From the NCBI GenBank assembly GCA_049968255.1, contig JBMFRB010000002.1, positions 320,001 through 384,000 on the forward strand: DNA of 64,000 nt, written 5' to 3'. A program made the translations under genes and the position numbers. A model generated the notes under the pieces. That model saw only the letters and a program-made list of their open reading frames with translations, made no database searches and was not told the origin of the DNA. Origin of the DNA: Candidatus Sumerlaeaceae bacterium (GTDB lineage: Bacteria; Sumerlaeota; Sumerlaeia; Sumerlaeales; Sumerlaeaceae). Of this stretch, positions 7,362 through 40,637 are shown one piece after another; positions within the stretch are counted from its first letter, which is position 1, and each line of letters begins with the position of its first letter.

Positions 7362-8213
7362 TCAGAATCGCACGTTATCGATTAAGCGTGTTTTGCCGAG
7401 AAAAACCGCCGCCGCAACCATCGTGTTTCCGAATTCGACCTGTTTCAGAGGTGCCAGGTTATCAAGGCGAACTATTTCCACATAGTCCACAACGCCCCCC
7501 ATATTTTCTCCGAGAGTGTGCAGAATTTTTTCCCGAAGAATCTGGGAATCCAGGCATCGCCCACTGACGGCCAACTCCTTCGCTTCGGTCAGAGCTCGGT
7601 AAAGCCAGGGCGCTCGCTCTCGTTCTTCGGGCGAAAGGTAAGTATTTCGCGAGCTCATGGCCAGTCCATCAGCTTCGCGAACCGTCTCGACGCCGACGAT
7701 TTCCATAGGAAAGTTCAGGTCAGCTACCATCTTCTTGATGATGAGCAGCTGTTGCGCATCCTTCCAACCGAAGACGGCGAAATCGGGCTCGACGATATTA
7801 AACAGTTTTGCCACGATCGTACAAACGCCCCGAAAGTGGCCTGGACGCGATTTGCCACAGAGTACGGAACCCATAGGCCCAGGATCTACAGTCACCTGCA
7901 TATCCGACGGTGTGATGAGTGCGGCTGATGGGTAAAATAAGATTGTTCCGCCAGCTTCATCGATGACCTTTTTGTCATGCTCGATATCGCGCGGATAGCG
8001 CTCAAAATCTTCATTCGGTCCGAACTGCAAGGGATTGACGAAGACCGAGACAACGACTACAGGGGCAAGCTCCGCCGCTTTTCGAATGAGCGTGGCGTGC
8101 CCCTCGTGCAAATACCCCATCGTGGGCACAAAGGCAATAGCCTGATTAGACCTTTTAGCCGCCTGTAAGGTCGAGCGCAGCAATCCAATTGTATCATAAA
8201 TCTCTAGTTTCAT
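7362..8213 (-). CDS. panC: Pantoate--beta-alanine ligase
   Basis: FVPTMGYLHEGH, SVFVNPLQF, RPGHFRGV, KDAQQ, GLAMSSRN and TRLIDN. Start moved to ATG 8213 (283 aa). Confidence 0.96.
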   Translation of the reverse strand: MKLEIYDTIGLLRSTLQAAKRSNQAIAFVPTMGYLHEGHATLIRKAAELAPVVVVSVFVNPLQFGPNEDFERYPRDIEHDKKVIDEAGGTILFYPSAALITPSDMQVTVDPGPMGSVLCGKSRPGHFRGVCTIVAKLFNIVEPDFAVFGWKDAQQLLIIKKMVADLNFPMEIVGVETVREADGLAMSSRNTYLSPEERERAPWLYRALTEAKELAVSGRCLDSQILREKILHTLGENMGGVVDYVEIVRLDNLAPLKQVEFGNTMVAAAVFLGKTRLIDNVRF

Positions 8214-8336
8214 AAAATCCTTGCTAGGCAAAGCCACGTTGTTGCTCAAGCGTATATGAGACGCGCGTTCAGCAGGGGGACAAACACAATCTGATGGTAT
8301 TTGACATTTTACGGAGGAGGGCGGATCCGAAGTCCT

Positions 8337-10871
8337 ATGACTCAGAAACACAAAATCGTGTGCGTACTTTTCTTAACCGCGGTTTTTTTTGTTTCGGCAA
8401 GTGGGCATGCCGACAAACTTGTTTTTCGTACGGGTAGTGTGATCGAGGGGATAATTCTTGAGGAAACAGCGGACCATATTCTTTTTCGCGATCGCAGCGG
8501 AGAAGTCCGCAGCTATAGCAAAACGTTGTTGCAGTCCGTTCAGCGCGAGGAGTCCGCGCTTGGCACCAGTGTGGCGGATGTATTGCAGCGTGCTAGGAGT
8601 TATCGCCAAGCAGGCAAATTCGACGCCGCGCTGGAGGTTCTCGTGCAAGCAGCCGCGAATGCGCCTGGAAGTGCCAACGCTTTGTCTGAGGAATTTCAGG
8701 CGACGCTCTTCCAGCTCGATGCGGCGCTCAAGGAAGTGTATCCGCGCGATAAAAGACGAGCTCGCGAACTTCTTGTCACAAGACAGAAAAGCTTGCAAAG
8801 CTCTGGGACTTTGCTTCTCGTCCCGGCCAGGGCAACTCTCGAGTCATGGCGAAAAGAAACCAGCAAATCACTAGCTGCGATAGACTATGAGTTGGCGGTG
8901 TCATTCTCGCAGCAGCCTAATAAACTTCCACAAATTCGGGAACTACTCCTCGAGGCTATTGCACTCGACCCACAAAACGCGAATGCACATCTTTATCTCG
9001 CGGATACGGCCCTGGCACTGGACGATATCGCATTGGCTATGCGCGAATATAAAACGGCGTTGGGATTTTCGGGAACAAGTACAGAATTTCGTCAGCGTGC
9101 CGAACAAGGCTTGCAGGTAGCTCAAGCTCGATTAGCAGCTCGGCAAACACCAGCTCCGGTGCGCACGCAACTCGAGTTGCAATCCCCACCAGGTACCCAA
9201 TCGCTCTCGCCACAGCCCGAGGCTCAGCCGTCGACAAAGTTTGCCGTCTGGCTGGCTATCGTGGAGCAGCGTCTGGAAAAAACTGGCATCATGGCTTATG
9301 TTCGCCCGGTCTGGCGCGAAATAAGTAGTGGAGAATACAATGCGTACCTTATTGGGGTCCCCTCTTTTGTTTTTGTGTTTTGGCTTCTCCCTTACTGGTT
9401 CGTCCGCTACCGCTCGAAAAATGGCGATGTGCTGGCAGCAGAGCTTCGTGAGCCCGCCAAGAAAATTGGTTTGGTGGCTTTACTGCTTTACCTCGGGCGT
9501 GCGTTGAAATCGGCAAAACCGAAAAACCGCTGTCCCTTTTGTAACAAGAGCCTCGATAAATTGGATGCTTACACGGATCTCAACTTCTACGCCTGCCCGC
9601 ACTGCCATGAACCGATAACGCCAATTTATGATCTCAAGGATTACATAGACCATCTCGTCAAACAGATCGAGCTCCAACTCAAGCACTCGAAAGAAAGCGT
9701 CATCGCGGGCGTCGAACGTGATCTCATGCTGAAGCTCGTGCGCGCGGTTATAACACTAGCAGTGCGCAGACGCGCCAGCGATTTGCATTTGGAGACCGAG
9801 GTCGACGGCGCCAAGCTCCGTGTCCGCATCGACGGCATGATGTACGATTTCATGCATTTACCGCGCAGCGTGTCGTTGGCGTTTATTTCGGCTTTGAAAA
9901 TCATGGCGAACCTCGACATCACCGAACGGCGAATTCCGCAGGACGGCAAGATCGGCATGTGGATAGATAAGGTAGATCTTGACCTACGCATCAACACCAG
10001 CCCCGCAGCCATGGGAGAAAAGGTCACTATTCGAATTTTAAATCCGAAAAGCATTGCTGTAGATCCGGTGCGGCTTGGCCTGGAGGGTGAGAATCTTGAA
10101 CGATTTGAACGAGCGATTCATCGTCCGCACGGCATGATTATCGTCACTGGGCCGGCTGGCTCAGGCAAGTCTACCACGCTTTACGTGGCACTGAACCTCA
10201 TCAACACAGGGGAAAAGAACATTGTGACCTTAGAGGACCCCATCGAGTACCAGATCAAAGGGGCGTCGCAAATGCAGGTCAACCCTGCTACCAATTTTAC
10301 TTTTGCCACGGGACTGCGTTCAATCCTTCGCCAGGATCCCGATGTGATTATGGTCGGCGAGATTCGGGATTCTGAAACAGCCGAGATTGCGGTCGAAGCT
10401 GCTTTGACTGGGCACTTGCTGCTGACAACTCTTCACACGATTGATTCGGCCACAGCGTTCGCGCGCATGGCAGATCTTGGTGTGGACACATCGCGGATGG
10501 CAAGTGCGCTCATTTGCATCATTGCCCAACGTCTCGTCCGCACGATCTGCCCGAACTGTAAGAAACCTTACAAACCAAAACGAGAGCTGCTTGAGCAACT
10601 CAACGTCGTCGAAGTACCACGGGATTTCACTTTCGTGCATGGGGCAGGCTGTGCCGAGTGCATGAATACAGGCTACTGTGGCAGAATGGGATTGTTTGAA
10701 TTCCTCATGCCCGATGACCAGATGCGCGAGGTGCTCGAAGGGGCCCCGCCTGTGTCAGTTATCAGAGAACTCTCGCGGAAAAAAGGATTTGCTTCGCTGA
10801 AAGAAGAAGGTGTGCGTCGAGTGCTCAGCGGACTCACAACTGTCGAAGAAGTTTTGCGGGTGACAAGCTGA
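8337..10871 (+). CDS. GspE/PilB-family secretion/pilus ATPase fused to N-terminal signal peptide, TPR region, TM segment(s) and Zn ribbon
   Basis: The C-terminal half has ASDLHLE, RIPQDG, Walker A GPAGSGKS, TLEDPIE, LRQDPDVIMVGEIRD, His box TGHL..TTLHT, CPNC...CAEC..TGY.GR and G.TTVEEVLRV. The N-terminus has a Sec-type signal peptide (..VSASGHA|D) and TPR-like helices. Confidence 0.9.
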   Translation: MTQKHKIVCVLFLTAVFFVSASGHADKLVFRTGSVIEGIILEETADHILFRDRSGEVRSYSKTLLQSVQREESALGTSVADVLQRARSYRQAGKFDAALEVLVQAAANAPGSANALSEEFQATLFQLDAALKEVYPRDKRRARELLVTRQKSLQSSGTLLLVPARATLESWRKETSKSLAAIDYELAVSFSQQPNKLPQIRELLLEAIALDPQNANAHLYLADTALALDDIALAMREYKTALGFSGTSTEFRQRAEQGLQVAQARLAARQTPAPVRTQLELQSPPGTQSLSPQPEAQPSTKFAVWLAIVEQRLEKTGIMAYVRPVWREISSGEYNAYLIGVPSFVFVFWLLPYWFVRYRSKNGDVLAAELREPAKKIGLVALLLYLGRALKSAKPKNRCPFCNKSLDKLDAYTDLNFYACPHCHEPITPIYDLKDYIDHLVKQIELQLKHSKESVIAGVERDLMLKLVRAVITLAVRRRASDLHLETEVDGAKLRVRIDGMMYDFMHLPRSVSLAFISALKIMANLDITERRIPQDGKIGMWIDKVDLDLRINTSPAAMGEKVTIRILNPKSIAVDPVRLGLEGENLERFERAIHRPHGMIIVTGPAGSGKSTTLYVALNLINTGEKNIVTLEDPIEYQIKGASQMQVNPATNFTFATGLRSILRQDPDVIMVGEIRDSETAEIAVEAALTGHLLLTTLHTIDSATAFARMADLGVDTSRMASALICIIAQRLVRTICPNCKKPYKPKRELLEQLNVVEVPRDFTFVHGAGCAECMNTGYCGRMGLFEFLMPDDQMREVLEGAPPVSVIRELSRKKGFASLKEEGVRRVLSGLTTVEEVLRVTS

Positions 10872-10885
10872 TCGGCGCGCCCAGA

Positions 10886-12085
10886 CTAGTCCATTGGCCA
10901 GTTGGGATCGCGGCTGAGGGCTTTCTCATCGGGAAAGCCGAGAACTTCGTAGTAGAGTTCCAGATATTGGCGAACGATTTTTCTTTCGCTGAAGAGTCGT
11001 TGTGCGCGTAAGCGTCCAGCACGTCCAAGACGGCTGGCTAATTCGCGGTCAGCAAAGATTCGCGTGACAGCTTCTGCCAAGCAGCCAATGTCGCCAACGG
11101 GACAAAGAAAGCCCGTTTTTCCGTGCTCAACCACTTCGCTGAGTCCACTGCCTTCAGTGCCAACAACAGGAACGCCACTAGCCATGGCCTCTAGTGCAGC
11201 CATTCCAAAAGATTCGTACTCACTTGGCAAAATGAGTGCATCGGCTAAACTATAGAAGTCTTCGATATTTGGATATTTACCTAAAAAGATAACATCCTTC
11301 GAGAGCTTAAGGCGATGAGCAAGTTTTTCCGCATGGGGACGTTCCGGACCGTCGCCTATAAGAATGAGCTTTGATGGAACCGCTTTCCGCACGATGTTGA
11401 ATGCTCCCACAACGTCGCGCACTCGCTTGACTGGCCGAAAATTCGACACGTGGAGAAGGACCTTCTCCTGCAGTGAGGCAAAGCATTCGCGAGACAGGCG
11501 TCTTGGACCTGGCCGAAAACGTGAGCAATCTACGAAATTGTAAATGACCGTCGGTGGCGTGTTTAGGGCGAATCCTTTTTCTGCACGTTGGGCAAGCCAA
11601 GCCGAGACGGCGGTTATTGCGTCGCTCTGCTCAAGAGCCCACTGCGAGAGCTCATAGAAGCTTGTTGTTCTGCCTACTAAGGTAACGTCCGTGCCATGAG
11701 CAGTCGTGATGAGCTTCGTGCGCGTGTTTTTTGTTACAAGCCGCGCCAAAGCTGCGACAATTGCGTGCGGAACAACATAGTGGGCATGAAGAATGTCGAG
11801 ATCTTCTTGCCGAATGACCTTGGCAATGTGCGAAGCCAGGTCGAGGCCCATCATCGGCGCTGGAAAGACGTCATAGTGGAATTGCTCCACCTCGTGATAA
11901 AAGAGGTTTTCCATGAACTCGGCCTGCTGGAGACGGAACGGGAGTTGGGGACTGAGAAAATGAACGCGATGGCCAAGACGCGCGAGTGCCTTGCCAAGTT
12001 CCGTTGCAATGACACCAGACCCGCCATGAGAACCGAAACATGCAATGCCAATGTTCAGCAAACGTCCTTTGCGGCGAACGGCCAT
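10886..12085 (-). CDS. bshA: N-acetyl-alpha-D-glucosaminyl L-malate synthase (GT4)
   Basis: GGSGVIATELG..LA..GH.VH, HAHY.VPHA, HGTDVTLVG, HVSNFRPVKR and ESFG.AALEAMA.GVPV form the BshA signature set. Confidence 0.88.
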   Translation of the reverse strand: MAVRRKGRLLNIGIACFGSHGGSGVIATELGKALARLGHRVHFLSPQLPFRLQQAEFMENLFYHEVEQFHYDVFPAPMMGLDLASHIAKVIRQEDLDILHAHYVVPHAIVAALARLVTKNTRTKLITTAHGTDVTLVGRTTSFYELSQWALEQSDAITAVSAWLAQRAEKGFALNTPPTVIYNFVDCSRFRPGPRRLSRECFASLQEKVLLHVSNFRPVKRVRDVVGAFNIVRKAVPSKLILIGDGPERPHAEKLAHRLKLSKDVIFLGKYPNIEDFYSLADALILPSEYESFGMAALEAMASGVPVVGTEGSGLSEVVEHGKTGFLCPVGDIGCLAEAVTRIFADRELASRLGRAGRLRAQRLFSERKIVRQYLELYYEVLGFPDEKALSRDPNWPMD

Positions 12086-22904: not shown

Positions 22905-23306
22905 ATGGCCGGTCAGACAAATCGCCGATATCCGCGAGTTCCCGTGCAATTGACGGGAACCCTCTGTATTTTGATTCCTGAAGAAACTTTTCAACCCATC
23001 GTCCACGATGTTCGTGTGTGCGATCTTAGCGAGCGTGGCGCGATGGTCGAATTTACTGCGCATGAAAGCACAATAAAGGCGTTATTACGTTCCACGCGTT
23101 ATTGCCGCTTGAGTTTTCATGGTTCCCCTGAGCTGCCGGAAAAAATCATTGGAAAGGCGGTCTGGGTTCAGCCCATTGGTTCCGGCGAGCATGTGCTGTG
23201 CCGGATTGGACTTTTCTTTGAGCAGTCCCCCGATGAGGCAGTGTCACAATTGAGGGCGTATATCGAAAAGCGTTTACGTGAGTTAGTTGACACAGATAAA
23301 CGCTGA
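22905..23306 (+). CDS. Stand-alone PilZ domain protein
   Basis: RxxxR (RRYPR) and DxSxxG (DLSERG) c-di-GMP motifs, plus GKAVW and IGLFF. RBS AGGGGG. Confidence 0.85.
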   Translation: MAGQTNRRYPRVPVQLTGTLCILIPEETFQPIVHDVRVCDLSERGAMVEFTAHESTIKALLRSTRYCRLSFHGSPELPEKIIGKAVWVQPIGSGEHVLCRIGLFFEQSPDEAVSQLRAYIEKRLRELVDTDKR

Positions 23307-23359
23307 ACCTCAGCTTCTTCGGAAATTAGCGAATAACCAAGCATGCGAGGAGCAAGGCC

Positions 23360-24763
23360 GTGTGGTTCGATAAAAAGAGCTGGCGCCTACGTCGAAAAAT
23401 CAAAGACCTTCAAGCGGATTTGCGCGCTGCGGAAAAAGAGGGACGCTACGTGCTTGAAGATGGTCTTTTTTTTGCCGAGCTCGAGGACATGGGCGAAATG
23501 ACCATGCTTGTCTTCGGGACGACAGATGTCCTCTCTGCTCAAGAGGAAACCGTCACTCGAAGCTTCTTTGAGCGCAACGGCTTTACGGTTCACCGTCTGA
23601 AAATTGACAAAAGCCAAAGTCATCTTGCAGAAGTAGAGATCATTCCCCCATCGGAGATGGTGCGCTATGTGGCCCGCCGGCTGAAATCCCAAGGCTATAA
23701 GGTTTTAGACGATTCCGCGAAAGAAACTCCAAGCGAGCTTGATAAACGGATTATTACTCTAAGCGGTCTGGTACGCGCGCTGGTCATTCTCTTTTGCGAA
23801 CGCGTCCAGAGGACAATTGCCTCGACGAGGATCAAAATGAACAAGGAGGGCAACCGCCTGCTCCATTGGATGCCTAGAATCGCCGAGACACTCCACAGGA
23901 AAACCTCAAGCGATCTCGTGTCGCTCTTGAAGCCGCTTTTCGAGGACGCATATGCGGAATTTTATGGACACCTTGCGGAGAGCACATCGCCTCGCTCGGT
24001 AGCAGAGCCCGCTTTGCCAGCCGACCGCATTCCCGCTATACAATTTCCAGCGGAACAACCCCCACTCGCTTCCAAGTCGTCAATGGAATCGGTGAAATTT
24101 CCTGCCGCTATCCCTCTGCAGGAACCCAAAACGGCACCTGCTCCACCGCCGACAGGTGATCGAGTAATGGTCCCCGGTGAGCAGCCGGCTGCAGACATGG
24201 TCAGAGCAGCGCCACCCAAGGCAGTTTCAGATAGTGATCGCATAGAGATCGAGCGGCTTCTCAAGGAGGTCGAGGCGTCGGAGAGCGTCGCCCGTATGTA
24301 TCGGAAGTTGGTACGCGCTCAATCTAGCCGCTGCGTGCGAAATGCACAAGCGCTCCTTGAGGAGGTCAACCGACTCTTCGGCGCGACGGCTTCCTGTCTC
24401 CTTGTGAAAGTGCCCCATGCGCATGGCGTTACGATTCATGCTCAGGCCGGCAAGCCCCTCATTTGGGGGCAAGGTGGCAGAGAAGGTTTTCCTGTGTCCA
24501 CTTCAGTCGTTGCTGAAGTGGTCAAGACAAAGAAGGCTGCCAAAGCTGATCAGGGATCGTCTCCGGCCTCAGAAAGCATGATTTTGCACAGTATCGAGGC
24601 CGTGGCAGCAGCTCCAGTGTTCTTCAACGGCGAAATTGTGGCGATAGTGTATGTGGACCGTCGCGAGGGGCTTTGCCCTTTCGATCTCAACGATATGCGC
24701 GCATTGGAAAGGGTAGCTAAAGTTTTCGAAGAATTTCCCGATTTGACACTCGGGCTCGTGTGA
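23360..24763 (+). CDS. Hypothetical protein with Pro-rich linker and C-terminal GAF domain
   Basis: The C-terminus (S.SVV.EV...SESM....I..V.AAPV...GEIVAIVYVD....F...D) is GAF-like. The N-terminal domain is unrecognised. RBS GAGGAG. Confidence 0.65.
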   Translation: MWFDKKSWRLRRKIKDLQADLRAAEKEGRYVLEDGLFFAELEDMGEMTMLVFGTTDVLSAQEETVTRSFFERNGFTVHRLKIDKSQSHLAEVEIIPPSEMVRYVARRLKSQGYKVLDDSAKETPSELDKRIITLSGLVRALVILFCERVQRTIASTRIKMNKEGNRLLHWMPRIAETLHRKTSSDLVSLLKPLFEDAYAEFYGHLAESTSPRSVAEPALPADRIPAIQFPAEQPPLASKSSMESVKFPAAIPLQEPKTAPAPPPTGDRVMVPGEQPAADMVRAAPPKAVSDSDRIEIERLLKEVEASESVARMYRKLVRAQSSRCVRNAQALLEEVNRLFGATASCLLVKVPHAHGVTIHAQAGKPLIWGQGGREGFPVSTSVVAEVVKTKKAAKADQGSSPASESMILHSIEAVAAAPVFFNGEIVAIVYVDRREGLCPFDLNDMRALERVAKVFEEFPDLTLGLV

Positions 24764-24777
24764 AGGAGTGAGATTCT

Positions 24778-26358
24778 GTGCTCTGGTTAGAATCTCCCGC
24801 ACAACGAGGGCAGATGCAGGGTGAAAGACATAGCTTGAAAGAATCCCCGCTCGTGCCGTTGAGCCTCACGTACCTCGTTTTTTGGTTGCTCACTGCGGTC
24901 GGATATTCGCGGCCTGTTCAGTTTCGACAAGTTTCTGTTCCCGTTCAGTCGCTGAATCCGAAGATGGCTGTACATCCTGTGGATCTATGGGGCGACGAAA
25001 AACTAGAGTTCGTCGTCGTGTCGCCGAGTGGCAGTCTAGATGTTTTTGGATGGGACGGAGACAAGCTGAAATCTGAACAACGGATCAATTTCCCGACAGA
25101 GGATAATGGTCCGACGTATTATAGTTTTGCTCGGCTGATCCGTGGTGGAAAGTATTCCCTAATCCTACTCAGAGCAAATGGCTTGTACGTGTGGCCAGTG
25201 ACCGAGGAGCACTTCGACACATCACCGAAAAAACTTCTCGACATCTCACTGCCTAAGACCAACACAGCAGGTGAAACTTGCGAGTATTTTGAAATGGCTT
25301 ATGATCTTGATGGCGACGGCATTGACGAGTTGATTCTCCCTCAGGCTGAGCGCTTCACCCTTTACCATGCGCGGGAGCCGCTCCATTATGTTTCGGTTTC
25401 GCTTCCTCGCGATCCCTTTAAGTCCACATCAACATTTCAGTTTCGCCGACAACTTCCGGATGACCCTGTACGTGTGCCAAGTATCAGCGGCTCGGTGCTG
25501 CGGCGCCGGGGGGTAGATGATCTCGTATTCTTCGATGCCAATGGCGACGCAAAAGAGGATCTCGTCTTCACAAGCATTGTGCACGCTCCTAAAAGTCGAG
25601 AGATTGAGCGGTACGAGATATTTTTTCAGAAAAGCGGCCTGACTTTCGGAGTTGTCCCAGACCAAGTCATAGAGATTCCCTACGATGAGCGCTCCTACGT
25701 TACTTTTCGGGATTTCGACCGGGATGGCCGCTGCGAAGCGTTCACAGTGGCAAGCAACTACGACATTGTTGCCCCCCGCACCATCATTCGGATTCTTGGT
25801 GGCGATGCTAAGCGCACAACGTCGTCGAAGGAGCGTTTTCGTTTGGTCACAAAAGACCCTATCGGCCTTGTGAAACTCGGCGACTTCAATCGCGACGGTG
25901 TAGAAGATTTCGCCTGCACCTTTTTCAGCTATCAGTTCGGTTCGACGGAGGACATCGCCAGCATCGTCGCAGCTAACCGTGTGCGTTTTCGCCTTCAATT
26001 TTTCCTTGGCCAGACCGGAAAACTTTTTGCGCGCCAACCGAGTTATGAGTTTGAGCTCAATTTGAGTCTAAAACCTGAATCATATGGTTCCTATCCTCCA
26101 TTTTACCTCGTGCCCGACATGAACGGCGACGGTATTGTGGACCTTGTGGCACGAGCCGATGAAACGCGCGTTGCCGTCTACTTTTCCGAGGCGAAATTTG
26201 CTTATCCGCGCCAACCGACCGTCTCACTTCTCGTACCTCCCGATGCAGCGCTGAGTTTTGCTGACTGCAATGGCGATGGGCTTGATGACCTTATCGTGAC
26301 GAGCATCCAAAAACAGAGCGTGAGTATCTACCTCGCTCCGCCGAGGAGAGAAAAGTGA
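24778..26358 (+). CDS. Secreted FG-GAP/VCBS-repeat (beta-propeller, Ca-binding) protein
   Basis: Repeated D-x-[N/D]-[G/R]-D-G motifs (DLDGDGIDEL, DFDRDGRCE, DFNRDGVEDF, DMNGDGIVDL, DCNGDGLDDL) and an N-terminal hydrophobic segment. Confidence 0.82.
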   Translation: MLWLESPAQRGQMQGERHSLKESPLVPLSLTYLVFWLLTAVGYSRPVQFRQVSVPVQSLNPKMAVHPVDLWGDEKLEFVVVSPSGSLDVFGWDGDKLKSEQRINFPTEDNGPTYYSFARLIRGGKYSLILLRANGLYVWPVTEEHFDTSPKKLLDISLPKTNTAGETCEYFEMAYDLDGDGIDELILPQAERFTLYHAREPLHYVSVSLPRDPFKSTSTFQFRRQLPDDPVRVPSISGSVLRRRGVDDLVFFDANGDAKEDLVFTSIVHAPKSREIERYEIFFQKSGLTFGVVPDQVIEIPYDERSYVTFRDFDRDGRCEAFTVASNYDIVAPRTIIRILGGDAKRTTSSKERFRLVTKDPIGLVKLGDFNRDGVEDFACTFFSYQFGSTEDIASIVAANRVRFRLQFFLGQTGKLFARQPSYEFELNLSLKPESYGSYPPFYLVPDMNGDGIVDLVARADETRVAVYFSEAKFAYPRQPTVSLLVPPDAALSFADCNGDGLDDLIVTSIQKQSVSIYLAPPRREK

Positions 26359-37324: not shown

Positions 37325-37442
37325 CTGTGCGCGGTTGACTTGACACGCGTAGGCGCGCCGAGCAACGGTAGCGCTGATCCTGCAAAATTGAACCGAAATA
37401 GTTTTTCCAAAAGATACGGGAACCGTGAGGAAATTTTACGAG

Positions 37443-40400
37443 ATGAGAAAGCTTTGGGCAGTCGTTGGTATCGTTGTATTTTTGCCGGCTTGTCAGGAAT
37501 CACCGAAGGAAAATGCTAAGGTGGCCATTTCGTCGCCCACTCCTCCTCAATTCAAGGCAACGACCCCGACGGTTCCAAACGAAGAAAAAAGCACAGCGCC
37601 AGTGGTGCGGCTAGATATTGAAGAACCGATGATGCCGCTTCGGGGAACCATCAAAGCGTACGAGATTCGAGACGTTTCTCAGTTCAGTCCTGGCCTTCTG
37701 GCCGACGGATTCCTGGGAGATCTTGTTCTTGAGAACGACCTGGTGCGGTTCGTTGTGCGGCGTCCGGATCCTTCGTTGCCGGAGATGCCCCCCGCAGGGG
37801 CGATCATTGATGTAGCGAACCAGAAATCGCACGCCGACTATTTCAATTACTGCGAGCCGATTCCAGACGTCGAGACGACAACAACCAAAATTAAGATTGA
37901 GCGCGTCGCTTCATTCCTTGTGGATAAACAGACTACTTCGCGCCTTGTTTTGACGGGACGTCTTATCGAAACGCTCGCCCCCCCGCCCAGTGAAAACGAG
38001 AGTCAGACCTCACCACCGGTAACAAAAAACCTCCCCGTTCGTGTGGTGATGACTTACGAGCTGGCGAAGGACACTCCGTATCTGATCGTCAAAACAACCT
38101 TCACAAATGAAAGCACAGGGCCGATCTCACTGTCACCAGGCGATTTTATTGATTGGGGCGAAGCCCAGTCCTTCGTCGAAGGGCTTGGTGTCGGCGTCGG
38201 CGTTGTCACGAAGTCAAACTGGGTCGGGGCAACGATTGACAATTTTTCTATGGGCGTGTGCCTGCCGGGGCCAAAGCCAGTAACCAACTATGCGTCCGGC
38301 CGATACACGGTCGTTCAAGCCCTTGAAACTGAGGCGCGCAAGCCCCTCGCCTTACCGACACATACACCGTCACCAACGCCTTCGCTTACTAAGACAGTTC
38401 AAAGTTTTGCCCCGGGCGGCTTTACGCCCATAGGCGTTGCCAACCAGCCTGAGCAGCCACGTGCAACGCCTACGTTGGCGCCGCCGCGAACAGAAACCAC
38501 ATACGCTCCTCAAGCAAAACCGACCATGGCCCCAATCCGTCCTCCGCGCGCTGAAACAATATATGGGCCCCACGCCAATGTTGGTGATGCGACTAGACGT
38601 TCGCAGGCCACAATTCTGCCCGCTCAACAGGCATCGGATCTCCATGGAGAATCTCTCGGTGGTGGAGGAGGCAAAAACGAGGAAACGACGGGAGTGACCG
38701 GACCACTCAAAGGGCCTTCCGCTGAAAGTAAACTGGCGCGAACGGATCGAGTGGTGCTCGCGCCTAGGAAAAGCTATGAGTATACACGCTACTATGTCGT
38801 TGGCGATCGCAATCTTTCGCGGGTCAGCGAGCAGGTTTATCGCCTGAAAAACATTCCGCTCGGTGTCGTTGCTGGACTAGTAGTCGAAGAAGGAACCAAT
38901 CGGCCTATCGCGCAAGCTGAGGTGCGTGTCTCCGGGGGGGCAGCTTGGAACGGGAAGGGAGCTCCTTACGCATTTACAAAAACTTTGACCAGAGCCGACG
39001 GGACTTTTGTCGTCCGCCTTCCTTATGGCAACTATGTCCTGACTGCGGCAAAAGTTGGGCGCCAGCTTGTCATCTCACCGCAGAAGGTCTCGCTTTACCG
39101 CAAAAGCGCTGAACAATATGTTGGAATCATCTTGTCCAAAGAAGCTCGAATTGAGGTGGCGGTAAGTGACCCAGATGCACCCACTTCTGCCCCTCTCCCC
39201 TGCCGGTTGACACTCGTGGCTAAACCTGGGACAGAGCCTATTGATTGGGGCTACGGGTCGGGCAGCGTGGCAGCGGTACGCAATGTGGCATATATGCCTT
39301 ATGGCGGCGCGACGCTTCCCGTCACTCCTGGTTACTATCGGCTTCTGATTAGTCGCGGACCCGAGTACGACGCCCTCGAACAGGATCTCGTGGTAACCAA
39401 GGGCTCGACGCAAAAAATTATTGTGACCCTCCCGCGCGCATTCCGTACGCCGGGAATGGTCAGCGCCGATGTGGGGGTCATGACAACAGCGAGTGCCATC
39501 GCTCTAACGACACCTGAGGATCTTGCCGTTATGGCCGCCTGCGAAGGCGTGTCAGTTCTCGTGAGCGGTGACTTCGAGAAAGCCACAGATCTTACCCAGG
39601 CCATAAAATCATTGCAGCTCCAAAAGTATGTGAAAGCTATCCCTGGGATGCGCTTCCTCGTAAGTGGCCGGGGAGCCACGGCAAACGTCCTCGTTTATCC
39701 GGTGACAGCAGAGACGGAGGCAAAGTTGAGAGATTTCCGGGCGAAAAGCAAAAATGTCGCCCCCGATGTTTTTCTTGCGGATCTCCGGCGACAATTTAGC
39801 GACCTTGTGATTCAGATCGATCAGCCACTTCATCCCTTGGCAGGCTACCTAGCACGAATCCCGTTCAACGAGCGCTTCAAGCGTTACGAGGATTCAGATG
39901 TTCCTCCGCCCGATTTTCATGCACTTCAGGTTTTAAATGGCAAACTCGTCAACGAGTTCCAGGACGTCATGGATCGCTACTTCGATCTGGCTGTGAAGCG
40001 AACGCGCTGGCCCGAGGCATCTCCTGCACTCACGCCCCTAGGTTCTTCCATGTGCCGTCTTCCCTATGGCACAGAAGTTGGCTACCCCCGCGTGTATGCA
40101 ATTACGATCCACGACACCTTGGACACCTTCGGCTCGACTGATCTGGCCCAATCTATTATGAACCAGCGGGTGATCGTGACAAATAGCCTCATGCCGAAAT
40201 TACTGGGTTATTCGCCAGCTGCACGCACTTATGCAGCCCAACCAGGCGACGTGGTGGATACTGGAACAACCGGTGCTCTCCCAATGAAAATCAACATCAT
40301 GGCGGCGTCGTGGGTTTCGCTGAGCAACTTTGATCTCACATGGAACGGGAAATTGGTCCGCCGCATCCAGGTAATGCCCGTGAAAAGGGTTTTGCGTTAT

Positions 40401-40637
40401 CCTGTTCGTCAACAAGCCGACGCGGATATGCAGTACGTCTATGTCGATGGCGACGGTTTCTCGAATCTGATTTGCTTTAGCAACCGCAAATCACTTTCCC
40501 CCATCGTTCCCGCCTCATTGCCAGATTTCGGCGGCGACGTTTGGCCGCTCGCTTGGACCGGGCCAATTTTCGTAGATCAGAACCGCGACGGGAAAATCAG
40601 AATTGAGTCGCAGCAGGATCAGAAAACGAAGCCATAG
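37443..40637 (+). CDS. Large lipoprotein with carboxypeptidase-regulatory-like beta-sandwiches and degenerate PHP-like (CehA/McbA-like) domain
   Basis: Signal peptide ending VVFLPA-C, then GD.VLEN..VRFV, G.IID, T.ADGTF...LP.G.Y and SRGPEY. The PHP-like region lacks His ligands. C-terminal A.T.PIFVD..RDG. Confidence 0.65.
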   Translation: MRKLWAVVGIVVFLPACQESPKENAKVAISSPTPPQFKATTPTVPNEEKSTAPVVRLDIEEPMMPLRGTIKAYEIRDVSQFSPGLLADGFLGDLVLENDLVRFVVRRPDPSLPEMPPAGAIIDVANQKSHADYFNYCEPIPDVETTTTKIKIERVASFLVDKQTTSRLVLTGRLIETLAPPPSENESQTSPPVTKNLPVRVVMTYELAKDTPYLIVKTTFTNESTGPISLSPGDFIDWGEAQSFVEGLGVGVGVVTKSNWVGATIDNFSMGVCLPGPKPVTNYASGRYTVVQALETEARKPLALPTHTPSPTPSLTKTVQSFAPGGFTPIGVANQPEQPRATPTLAPPRTETTYAPQAKPTMAPIRPPRAETIYGPHANVGDATRRSQATILPAQQASDLHGESLGGGGGKNEETTGVTGPLKGPSAESKLARTDRVVLAPRKSYEYTRYYVVGDRNLSRVSEQVYRLKNIPLGVVAGLVVEEGTNRPIAQAEVRVSGGAAWNGKGAPYAFTKTLTRADGTFVVRLPYGNYVLTAAKVGRQLVISPQKVSLYRKSAEQYVGIILSKEARIEVAVSDPDAPTSAPLPCRLTLVAKPGTEPIDWGYGSGSVAAVRNVAYMPYGGATLPVTPGYYRLLISRGPEYDALEQDLVVTKGSTQKIIVTLPRAFRTPGMVSADVGVMTTASAIALTTPEDLAVMAACEGVSVLVSGDFEKATDLTQAIKSLQLQKYVKAIPGMRFLVSGRGATANVLVYPVTAETEAKLRDFRAKSKNVAPDVFLADLRRQFSDLVIQIDQPLHPLAGYLARIPFNERFKRYEDSDVPPPDFHALQVLNGKLVNEFQDVMDRYFDLAVKRTRWPEASPALTPLGSSMCRLPYGTEVGYPRVYAITIHDTLDTFGSTDLAQSIMNQRVIVTNSLMPKLLGYSPAARTYAAQPGDVVDTGTTGALPMKINIMAASWVSLSNFDLTWNGKLVRRIQVMPVKRVLRYPVRQQADADMQYVYVDGDGFSNLICFSNRKSLSPIVPASLPDFGGDVWPLAWTGPIFVDQNRDGKIRIESQQDQKTKP

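Follow-up and report, generated by a model that had tools for sequence, protein, structure and literature searches.

Models of type IV filaments picture their motors as soluble rings, exchanged in a PilM/GspL socket. The window analysed here, a stretch of 64,000 nucleotides from a Candidatus Sumerlaeaceae bacterium (contig JBMFRB010000002.1, positions 320,001 to 384,000), carries at 8337-10871 a gene for a PilB/GspE-family ATPase that is preceded, in the same frame, by a predicted signal peptide, an ectodomain, a transmembrane (TM) segment and a zinc ribbon. The locus raises the questions of whether such a fusion is real, whether its motor is intact and held in the membrane, and which machine it would serve. 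In this study, we report that the fusion is genuine and ancient, that it is no assembly fusion, and that it marks two phyla, for the most part uncultured, by its near-universal presence in single copy; databases label it simply GspE or PilB. The protein is a variant of PilB/GspE and not a plain member, since of two defining features of that family N1D was not detected in it and solubility is not predicted for it. It is likely that a normally soluble motor is here tied into the membrane by an anchor of its own.

Domain organisation of the protein

The gene is a single open reading frame (ORF) on the plus strand, encoding 844 residues counted from the ATG. Its features are as follows.

8337..10871, + strand: whole gene, membrane-anchored PilB/GspE-family ATPase of 844 residues, apparently monocistronic (ORF and orthologs)
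8337..8411, + strand: predicted Sec signal peptide, residues 1-25 (GHA/D), from hydropathy and, by a simple rule, the same pattern ahead of the beta domain in orthologs
8412..8552, + strand: five-stranded Sm/Hfq-fold beta domain, residues 26-72, Lepto_7_Nterm-like (below cut-off)
8571..9143, + strand: tetratricopeptide repeat (TPR)-like helical ectodomain, residues 79-269 (Pfam, AlphaFold)
9144..9242, + strand: P/Q/T-rich disordered linker, residues 270-302 (pLDDT <50 at 272-302)
9243..9326, + strand: residues 303-330, juxtamembrane helices of amphipathic character, predicted to lie on the periplasmic face (AlphaFold)
9348..9404, + strand: TM1, residues 338-356, with a conserved W-x-x-P motif (hydropathy)
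9405..9509, + strand: basic loop and short interfacial helix H2, residues 357-391; TM1 and H2 make up a PLDc_N-like module
9531..9605, + strand: zinc ribbon CPFC-x17-CPHC, residues 399-423, all four cysteines invariant
9633..9686, + strand: connecting amphipathic helix, residues 433-450, running into N2D (AlphaFold)
9714..10865, + strand: PilB/GspE ATPase core, N2D at residues 460-568 and C-terminal domain (CTD) at 569-843
10149-10175, + strand: ATPase motif, Walker A
10233-10247, + strand: ATPase motif, Asp box
10347-10370, + strand: ATPase motif, Walker B
10413-10436, + strand: ATPase motif, His box
10548-10661, + strand: ATPase motif, tetracysteine

Hydropathy gave two strong segments, residues 7-25 (the h-region of the signal, followed by GHA/DK) and 338-356, together with a short, amphipathic hydrophobic stretch at 379-391. 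Pfam assigned T2SSE to residues 463-841 (E 2.5e-120) and gave weak TPR matches at 82-116 and 202-243; a T2SSE_N/MshEN (N1D) match was not found among the best 25 of 26 Pfam families for the 844-residue protein. The best NCBIfam matches, both below their cut-offs, were GspE (TIGR02533, 474.5 against 630.25) and PilB (TIGR02538, 442 against 675.65), with a weak Lepto_7_Nterm match at residues 12-68. An AlphaFold2 model built from a 44-sequence alignment (mean pLDDT 88, pTM 0.56) placed in order the beta domain (26-69), helical repeats (79-269), a disordered segment (272-302), helices (303-330), a long helix (335-361), short helices up to 391, the zinc ribbon, the helix at 433-450 and the ATPase. 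The region ahead of N2D, the position of N1D, is filled in this model by the TM segment, helices and zinc ribbon. A profile of the TM segment and zinc ribbon (the TM+Zn profile) found no match better than E 0.13 among PDB sequences, and the ESM Atlas returned generic TPR clusters only (≤0.79).

A sequence-only reading of this DNA had described one continuous ORF with signal peptide, small beta domain, TPR helices, linker, TM segment, shorter hydrophobic stretch, zinc ribbon and ATPase. The 844-residue frame, hydropathy, Pfam and AlphaFold2 agree on this order. The CPFC at 9531 and the CPHC at 9594, with 17 residues between the inner cysteines, and the Walker A at 10149 were confirmed and the other ATPase motifs all located; the shorter hydrophobic stretch is the one at 379-391, and the beta domain is real and could be identified further as an Sm/Hfq-type fold.

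Occurrence of the fusion

The TM+Zn profile, made from 58 sequences of the same phylum and therefore partly circular as a search, had exactly one match in 64 of 75 Sumerlaeota genomes and in 41 of the 43 of high quality. The two high-quality misses were G063, whose N-terminal part lies at a contig edge, and G069, an apparent natural loss within the same class that could serve comparative profiling. The N-terminal half matched 68 of the 75 genomes, part of these matches being other TPR proteins. When 60 loci from 60 genomes were fetched, the module lay within a long ORF in every one and ran in one frame into a complete ATPase in 55; three of the remaining five stop at contig ends and two are broken inside the ATPase. 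The fusion thus recurs in independent genomes, and not as two separate genes.

Among 1.84 billion cluster representatives, the module had 68 matches at E ≤1e-10, of which 62 carried ATPase sequence, the other six being five short fragments and one truncated form of 344 residues. Homolog clusters carry plain database names, such as 'Type IV fimbrial assembly, ATPase PilB' in Sumerlaea chitinivorans. In a second phylum, Hinthialibacterota/OLB16, in which SURF_12 has been placed (PMC9324843), one strong match was found in 24 of 35 genomes, and one further genome had a weak match to an unrelated small protein. In two look-ups of ten divergent cluster representatives each, 8 and all 10 came without a taxon, so that anchored ATPases in phyla beyond these two are possible. 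In a quick tree, used as a clade test, 31 anchored ATPases sampled from Sumerlaeota formed one clade apart from the soluble paralogs of six genomes (SH-aLRT 99); no firm sister group of this clade emerged (support 84, long branches).

Predicted membrane topology

Topology was predicted from hydropathy, charge counts and a simple signal rule that had no negative control. The beta domain was detected in 52 of 84 members; a hydrophobic stretch and basic residues precede it in all 52, and small residues occupy -1 and -3 directly before the domain in 40. A Kyte-Doolittle value of 1.6 was reached by TM1 in 56 of 58 sequences and by H2 in 12, and the uncharged run of H2 was at most 14 residues in 36. 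Lysines and arginines averaged 1.7 ahead of TM1, 5.2 between TM1 and H2 and 5.9 beyond H2, and in 57 of 58 sequences the loop between TM1 and H2 exceeded the side upstream of TM1 in basic character; this charge bias supports an N-out, ATPase-in orientation. Polytopic forms, as judged by eye, have an odd number of TM segments ahead of the weak H2.

The protein is accordingly predicted, from its sequence, to cross the membrane once with its N-terminus outside, H2 in the inner leaflet and the zinc ribbon and ATPase in the cytoplasm. As a prediction, the self-anchored topology of the sequence-only reading is borne out by hydropathy and charge bias. H2 was also considered as a second full TM segment of the window protein; this was rejected, the uncharged run being 11 residues with basic residues on both sides.

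Catalytic core

The ATPase model superposes on Thermus PilF/PilB (5oiu) with a TM-score of 0.95 by target and a root-mean-square deviation (rmsd) of 1.9 Å. All motifs are present in the window protein, and the Walker A lysine, E633 and E637 (Asp box), E675 (Walker B), H693, H700 and the four cysteines are kept in 55 of 55 complete Sumerlaeota copies; the CTD tetracysteine (C738, C741, C772, C775) is invariant. The earlier claim of an intact motor holds, and hydrolysis looks to be under selection in the window gene. In PilT, the Walker B glutamate and a His-box histidine are required for function (PMC6858323). Core catalytic residues are kept in 14 of 22 complete Hinthialibacterota copies; degenerate full-length anchored ATPases are encoded at loci L128, L131, L140, L143 and L146-L149.

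The constant anchor and the variable arm

Among 43 TPR-type homologs, mean identity to the window protein was 25% in the beta domain, 22% in the TPR region, 14% in the linker, 34% in TM-H2, 53% in the zinc region and 64% in the ATPase (64% in each of N2D and CTD). Anchor and zinc ribbon occur in every member and are the best-kept parts outside the ATPase. By eye, 10 of 60 loci, which fall into two families, have 4-6 extra TM segments in the place of the ectodomain; in three more it is cut to about 35-45 residues, and further members are without the beta domain or without TPRs. Judged by these alignments, the constant unit is anchor, zinc ribbon and ATPase, with anchor and ribbon in the place of N1D; the conserved novelty is the anchor. 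The helices of the extra-TM loci (L055, L064, L067, L068, L070, L071, L074, L075, L077 and L084) resemble repeats of the anchor module.

The anchor module shares the layout TM, basic loop, G, short helix and zinc ribbon with small PLDc_N and zinc-ribbon proteins, which differ in being stand-alone, of 100-180 residues, unnamed and widespread. In hhalign, the whole module matched these proteins at 99.3% and the membrane part at 94.9%, against ≤2% in 30 column shuffles; the comparison is biased upward because those proteins had been picked by the module's own profile. PLDc_N (PF13396) itself is not among the 25 families listed for the 58 members, the link being indirect, through P0090 (26.5, above the cut-off of 23.3) and hhalign. 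It is plausible that the module arose by fusion with a protein of this type.

For the beta domain, the best PDB sequence match was Hfq (E 0.003). Foldseek superposed it on 3hfo with a TM-score of 0.85 (rmsd 0.9 Å, 45 residues), and VIA-align gave Z 7.8 for Hfq (rmsd 1.3 Å, 48 residues) and, as a tied top match, Z 8.4 for a domain of the cytochrome Kustd1711. The window domain is like Hfq/Sm in its Sm-type five-stranded barrel, but is without the N-terminal helix, strand 1 following directly on the predicted cleavage site, and is predicted to be periplasmic. Ring formation is only a lead, because the Hfq-fold domain also begins other predicted secreted proteins of this genome. Three such proteins are encoded at C8:45029-47014, C3:340919-342568 and C10:49448-50272 (C, contig); two of them have long TPR arrays, and all three are candidate periplasmic partners. 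The window also has an ordinary hfq behind a miaA-like gene (208-1639); its product scores above the TIGR02383 cut-off and ends in a long tail rich in charged residues.

Genomic neighbourhood and partner genes

Both neighbours of the gene lie outside the system.

7362..8213, - strand: panC, divergent upstream neighbour, 123 bp gap
10886..12085, - strand: BshA-like glycosyltransferase gene, convergent downstream neighbour, 14 bp gap

No sigma-70-like promoter was found in 8100-8420. The window contains no PilC/GspF, secretin or PilM match and no prepilin-like ORF, as the sequence-only reading had noted for pilin, PilC/GspF and secretin genes. Elsewhere the genome encodes 7 PilB-like and about 9 PilT-like proteins, 4 PilC/GspF, 3 secretins, three PilM-like loci and, by a strict motif, 28 prepilin-like ORFs. 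With 7 PilB-like proteins to 4 PilC/GspF and 3 secretins, either platforms must be shared or some of the ATPases act otherwise. Only two PilB paralogs adjoin a PilC, and four of the other six PilB-like genes have none adjacent. The description of the gene as an orphan is therefore right in that no pilus genes adjoin it, but this does not set it apart; the idea that being an orphan marks it as a new stand-alone system was rejected, orphan PilB-like genes being normal in this genome. Clustering of the neighbourhoods of 60 loci revealed no conserved operon in Sumerlaeota, the recurrent neighbours being housekeeping genes at lineage level; another type IV filament ATPase lay within about 6 kb in 6 of the 60. 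As no pilus genes travel with the gene, it represents a new form of motor and not the self-contained new system once suspected. The covered part of a Sumerlaeota paper mentions type IV twitching genes only (PMC8092238).

In Hinthialibacterota, two genes for secreted proteins lie directly upstream on the same strand in 12 of 23 loci, one encoding a beta-domain (Hfq-fold) and TPR protein and the other a protein with TolB_N-like and FGE-sulfatase domains. This three-gene operon is found at L122:4017-9040 and also at L123, L124, L125, L154, L156 and L159-L164. The FGE-domain protein occurs in 25 of 35 Hinthialibacterota genomes, namely all 24 with the anchored ATPase, one more, and 0 of the 10 others, these genomes being related and not independent. 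For its N-terminal domain, the query used drew no match in 74 of 75 Sumerlaeota genomes, the present one among them. PilB-like matches number 4-9 per genome in all 35 Hinthialibacterota and 5-9 in five sampled Sumerlaeota genomes. PilC cannot discriminate, since it is present in 35 of 35 Hinthialibacterota genomes.

Other filament-related genes of this genome (G000) were recorded in passing. At C5:65301-67328 there is a divergent PilB paralog whose motifs are altered (SNMFDG in place of R-x-PQDG, EEP, GEISD); it lies directly upstream of a 1118-residue ORF with TPR-like repeats (C5:61926-65282). At C2:21016-28296, a PilM-like gene of 671 residues is grouped with a small membrane protein and an unusually long secretin ORF (1576 residues). 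Pilin-like genes show a large genome-wide expansion, scattered away from the machine loci, and about 17 of them share the N-terminus F-T-L-I-E-L-L-I-V-V-A-I-(I/V)-A-(I/V)-L-A-A-I-A-(V/L)-(P/V)-N-(F/L)-L. Within the window, PilZ-domain, GAF-domain and FG-GAP repeat proteins are encoded consecutively at 22905-26358, the PilZ gene lying 12 kb away from that of the ATPase with nothing to suggest that the two are linked, and a 1070-residue lipoprotein-like ORF with P/T-rich linkers (37425-40637) has no NCBIfam match at 1e-10.

Mode of action and alternatives

Our favoured explanation, to which we give about an even chance, is that the protein tethers itself in the membrane and serves as an alternative assembly motor for a type IV pilus or type II secretion machine whose genes lie in another part of the genome. 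The N-terminal arm would be exported by Sec until TM1 stops transfer, and the basic loop and short helix would come to lie at the cytoplasmic face. The usual ring of six cores would surround a PilC/GspF platform, PilC being encoded elsewhere, and would be kept in position by its six anchors. The point of attachment, at N2D, matches the side of the ring that faces the membrane. In PilB and GspE, contact with the stator is proposed to be made by N1D (PMC11656802); because N1D was not detected here, the anchor may be its replacement, substituting for the binding of N1D to the PilM/GspL stator. The periplasmic Hfq-fold/TPR arm would be a variable docking or localising module that chooses the site or machine at which the motor assembles, and is most likely to dock protein or localise the motor rather than to sense a small molecule.

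Several observations weigh against this account. In 12 of 58 orthologs the uncharged run of H2 is at least 17 residues, long enough to cross the membrane. R532 is missing in 6 of 55 complete Sumerlaeota copies, and both His-box histidines are lost in 8 of 22 complete Hinthialibacterota copies with the architecture intact, most of these also being altered in Walker A, the Asp box or Walker B; motor activity is therefore not always under selection. Of the 60 loci, only 2 have a PilC within about 6 kb and 0 have a prepilin-like ORF, compared with about 10% of windows drawn at random from this genome, and no partner of the anchored ATPase was found among the neighbours of the 60 loci. Lastly, G069, a single contig that is 96% complete and has nine PilB-like matches, appears to be without the anchored gene, so that the gene is not essential.

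The sequence-only reading had proposed a motor gated across the membrane by a periplasmic ligand or partner. The ancient fusion, the predicted topology, the intact motor and the want of a matching characterised family all stand, but a universal ligand-receptor role is unlikely, because the ectodomain is the least conserved folded part, is swapped or reduced in 13 of 60 loci and is separated from the TM segment by a disordered linker. Gating by a protein partner remains plausible, mainly because of the Hinthialibacterota operon. In such a receptor-ATPase, a periplasmic protein would cluster the arms, or their Hfq-fold domains would ring outside, nucleating the PilB hexamer inside and switching assembly on, much as has been proposed for TagQ/TagR and the kinase PpkA, with a catalytically dead receptor or scaffold in some Hinthialibacterota; if true, this would mean direct outside-in control of pilus assembly or secretion. 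We consider this a serious though rather unlikely alternative. The upstream secreted-protein genes and the co-occurrence of the FGE protein with the anchored ATPase, if in related genomes, speak for it, as do the fold shared with ring-forming Hfq, the retention of the ectodomain in degenerate ATPases, and the TagR FGE domain, which has been modelled to bind the PpkA periplasmic domain across a disordered linker (PMC13713981). It fits poorly with the failure to find the N-terminal domain of the FGE protein in nearly all Sumerlaeota genomes with this query, with members in which the ectodomain is replaced or nearly absent or the beta domain undetected, and with the occurrence of the same fold in non-ring and other secreted proteins (7zs0, BirA, YgdR-like), of which this genome itself encodes at least three more.

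Less probable again is a regulatory or scaffold subunit, acting as a brake, placeholder or localiser either on the platform or in joint assemblies with soluble PilB paralogs, for which hydrolysis is dispensable. Catalytic decay needs at least two independent origins on a FastTree phylogeny of Hinthialibacterota, where the gene stays full-length and single-copy, and PilB-like paralogs are plentiful in both phyla; set against this is the retention of the catalytic residues in all complete Sumerlaeota copies and most of those of Hinthialibacterota, and a non-catalytic role suits the degenerate copies better than the window gene. We doubt still more that the protein acts in the envelope independently of PilC, using a ring of its own TM segments to move or assemble a complex of the periplasm or outer membrane. 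ExeA, a single-TM ATPase with a periplasmic domain (PMC4098917), is a precedent, and linkage to pilus genes is lacking; yet this lack says little because the soluble PilB paralogs are also unlinked, and N2D and CTD are equally conserved and PilB-like throughout, tetracysteine included. An artefact is very improbable, be it a fusion made in assembly or a topology in which a two-TM hairpin keeps the N-terminal arm in the cytoplasm. The long H2 of some orthologs, a few broken assembled copies (L034, L048, L083) and the use of one DNA sequencing run, in which 8858-10079 with the junction is uncovered, could be cited for it. The in-frame fusion in independent genomes refutes the first version, all beta-domain members have a signal-like N-terminus, and a hairpin would place the strongly basic loop outside.

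Comparison with known systems

The Hinthialibacterota operon resembles the TagQ/TagR-PpkA system of the P. aeruginosa H1 type VI secretion system in pairing an FGE periplasmic protein with a single-pass protein. PpkA has a folded domain in the periplasm, joined by a disordered linker to a catalytic domain in the cytoplasm, and TagR is a periplasmic FGE-domain protein (PMC13713981). PpkA is a kinase with no homology to the ATPase, however, and no FGE gene of this kind was found in the genome of the window; this is an analogy only.

With ExeA/GspA of the Aeromonas type II secretion system, the window protein has in common a single TM segment, here predicted, between a cytoplasmic ATPase and a periplasmic domain. 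The ATPase domain of ExeA is N-terminal, whereas that of the window protein is C-terminal, behind a signal peptide. The latter is a T2SSE ATPase with a TPR/Sm-fold ectodomain, and no AAA or peptidoglycan-binding match is among the families listed for it. ExeA is an inner-membrane AAA ATPase with a peptidoglycan-binding domain that aids secretin assembly, and it serves a machine of the type IV filament family (PMC4098917).

A membrane-anchored PilB/GspE was not described in any title or abstract opening of the open-access literature searched. In the review text covered, PilB docks in a cytoplasmic PilM socket and the word 'transmembrane' occurs 0 times (PMC11656802). The closest relatives are PilB/GspE proteins themselves (Thermus PilF 5oiu, Geobacter PilB 5tsh, Vibrio EpsE 4kss/4pht), with which the window protein shares the N2D and CTD fold (40-44% identity), together with every catalytic motif and the tetracysteine of the CTD. 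In place of N1D/MshEN it has a signal peptide, an ectodomain, a TM segment, an interfacial helix and a second zinc ribbon, and, unlike the soluble cytoplasmic ATPases, it is predicted to have a conserved signal peptide and TM segment. An anchored motor that lacks N1D offers a natural way to ask what purpose the stator contact serves, whether PilB and PilT can be exchanged only if the ATPase is free to diffuse, and whether the motor can receive a signal from outside directly. Members with TPR arms, with extra TM segments, with nearly no arm and with dead active sites supply the family's own controls.

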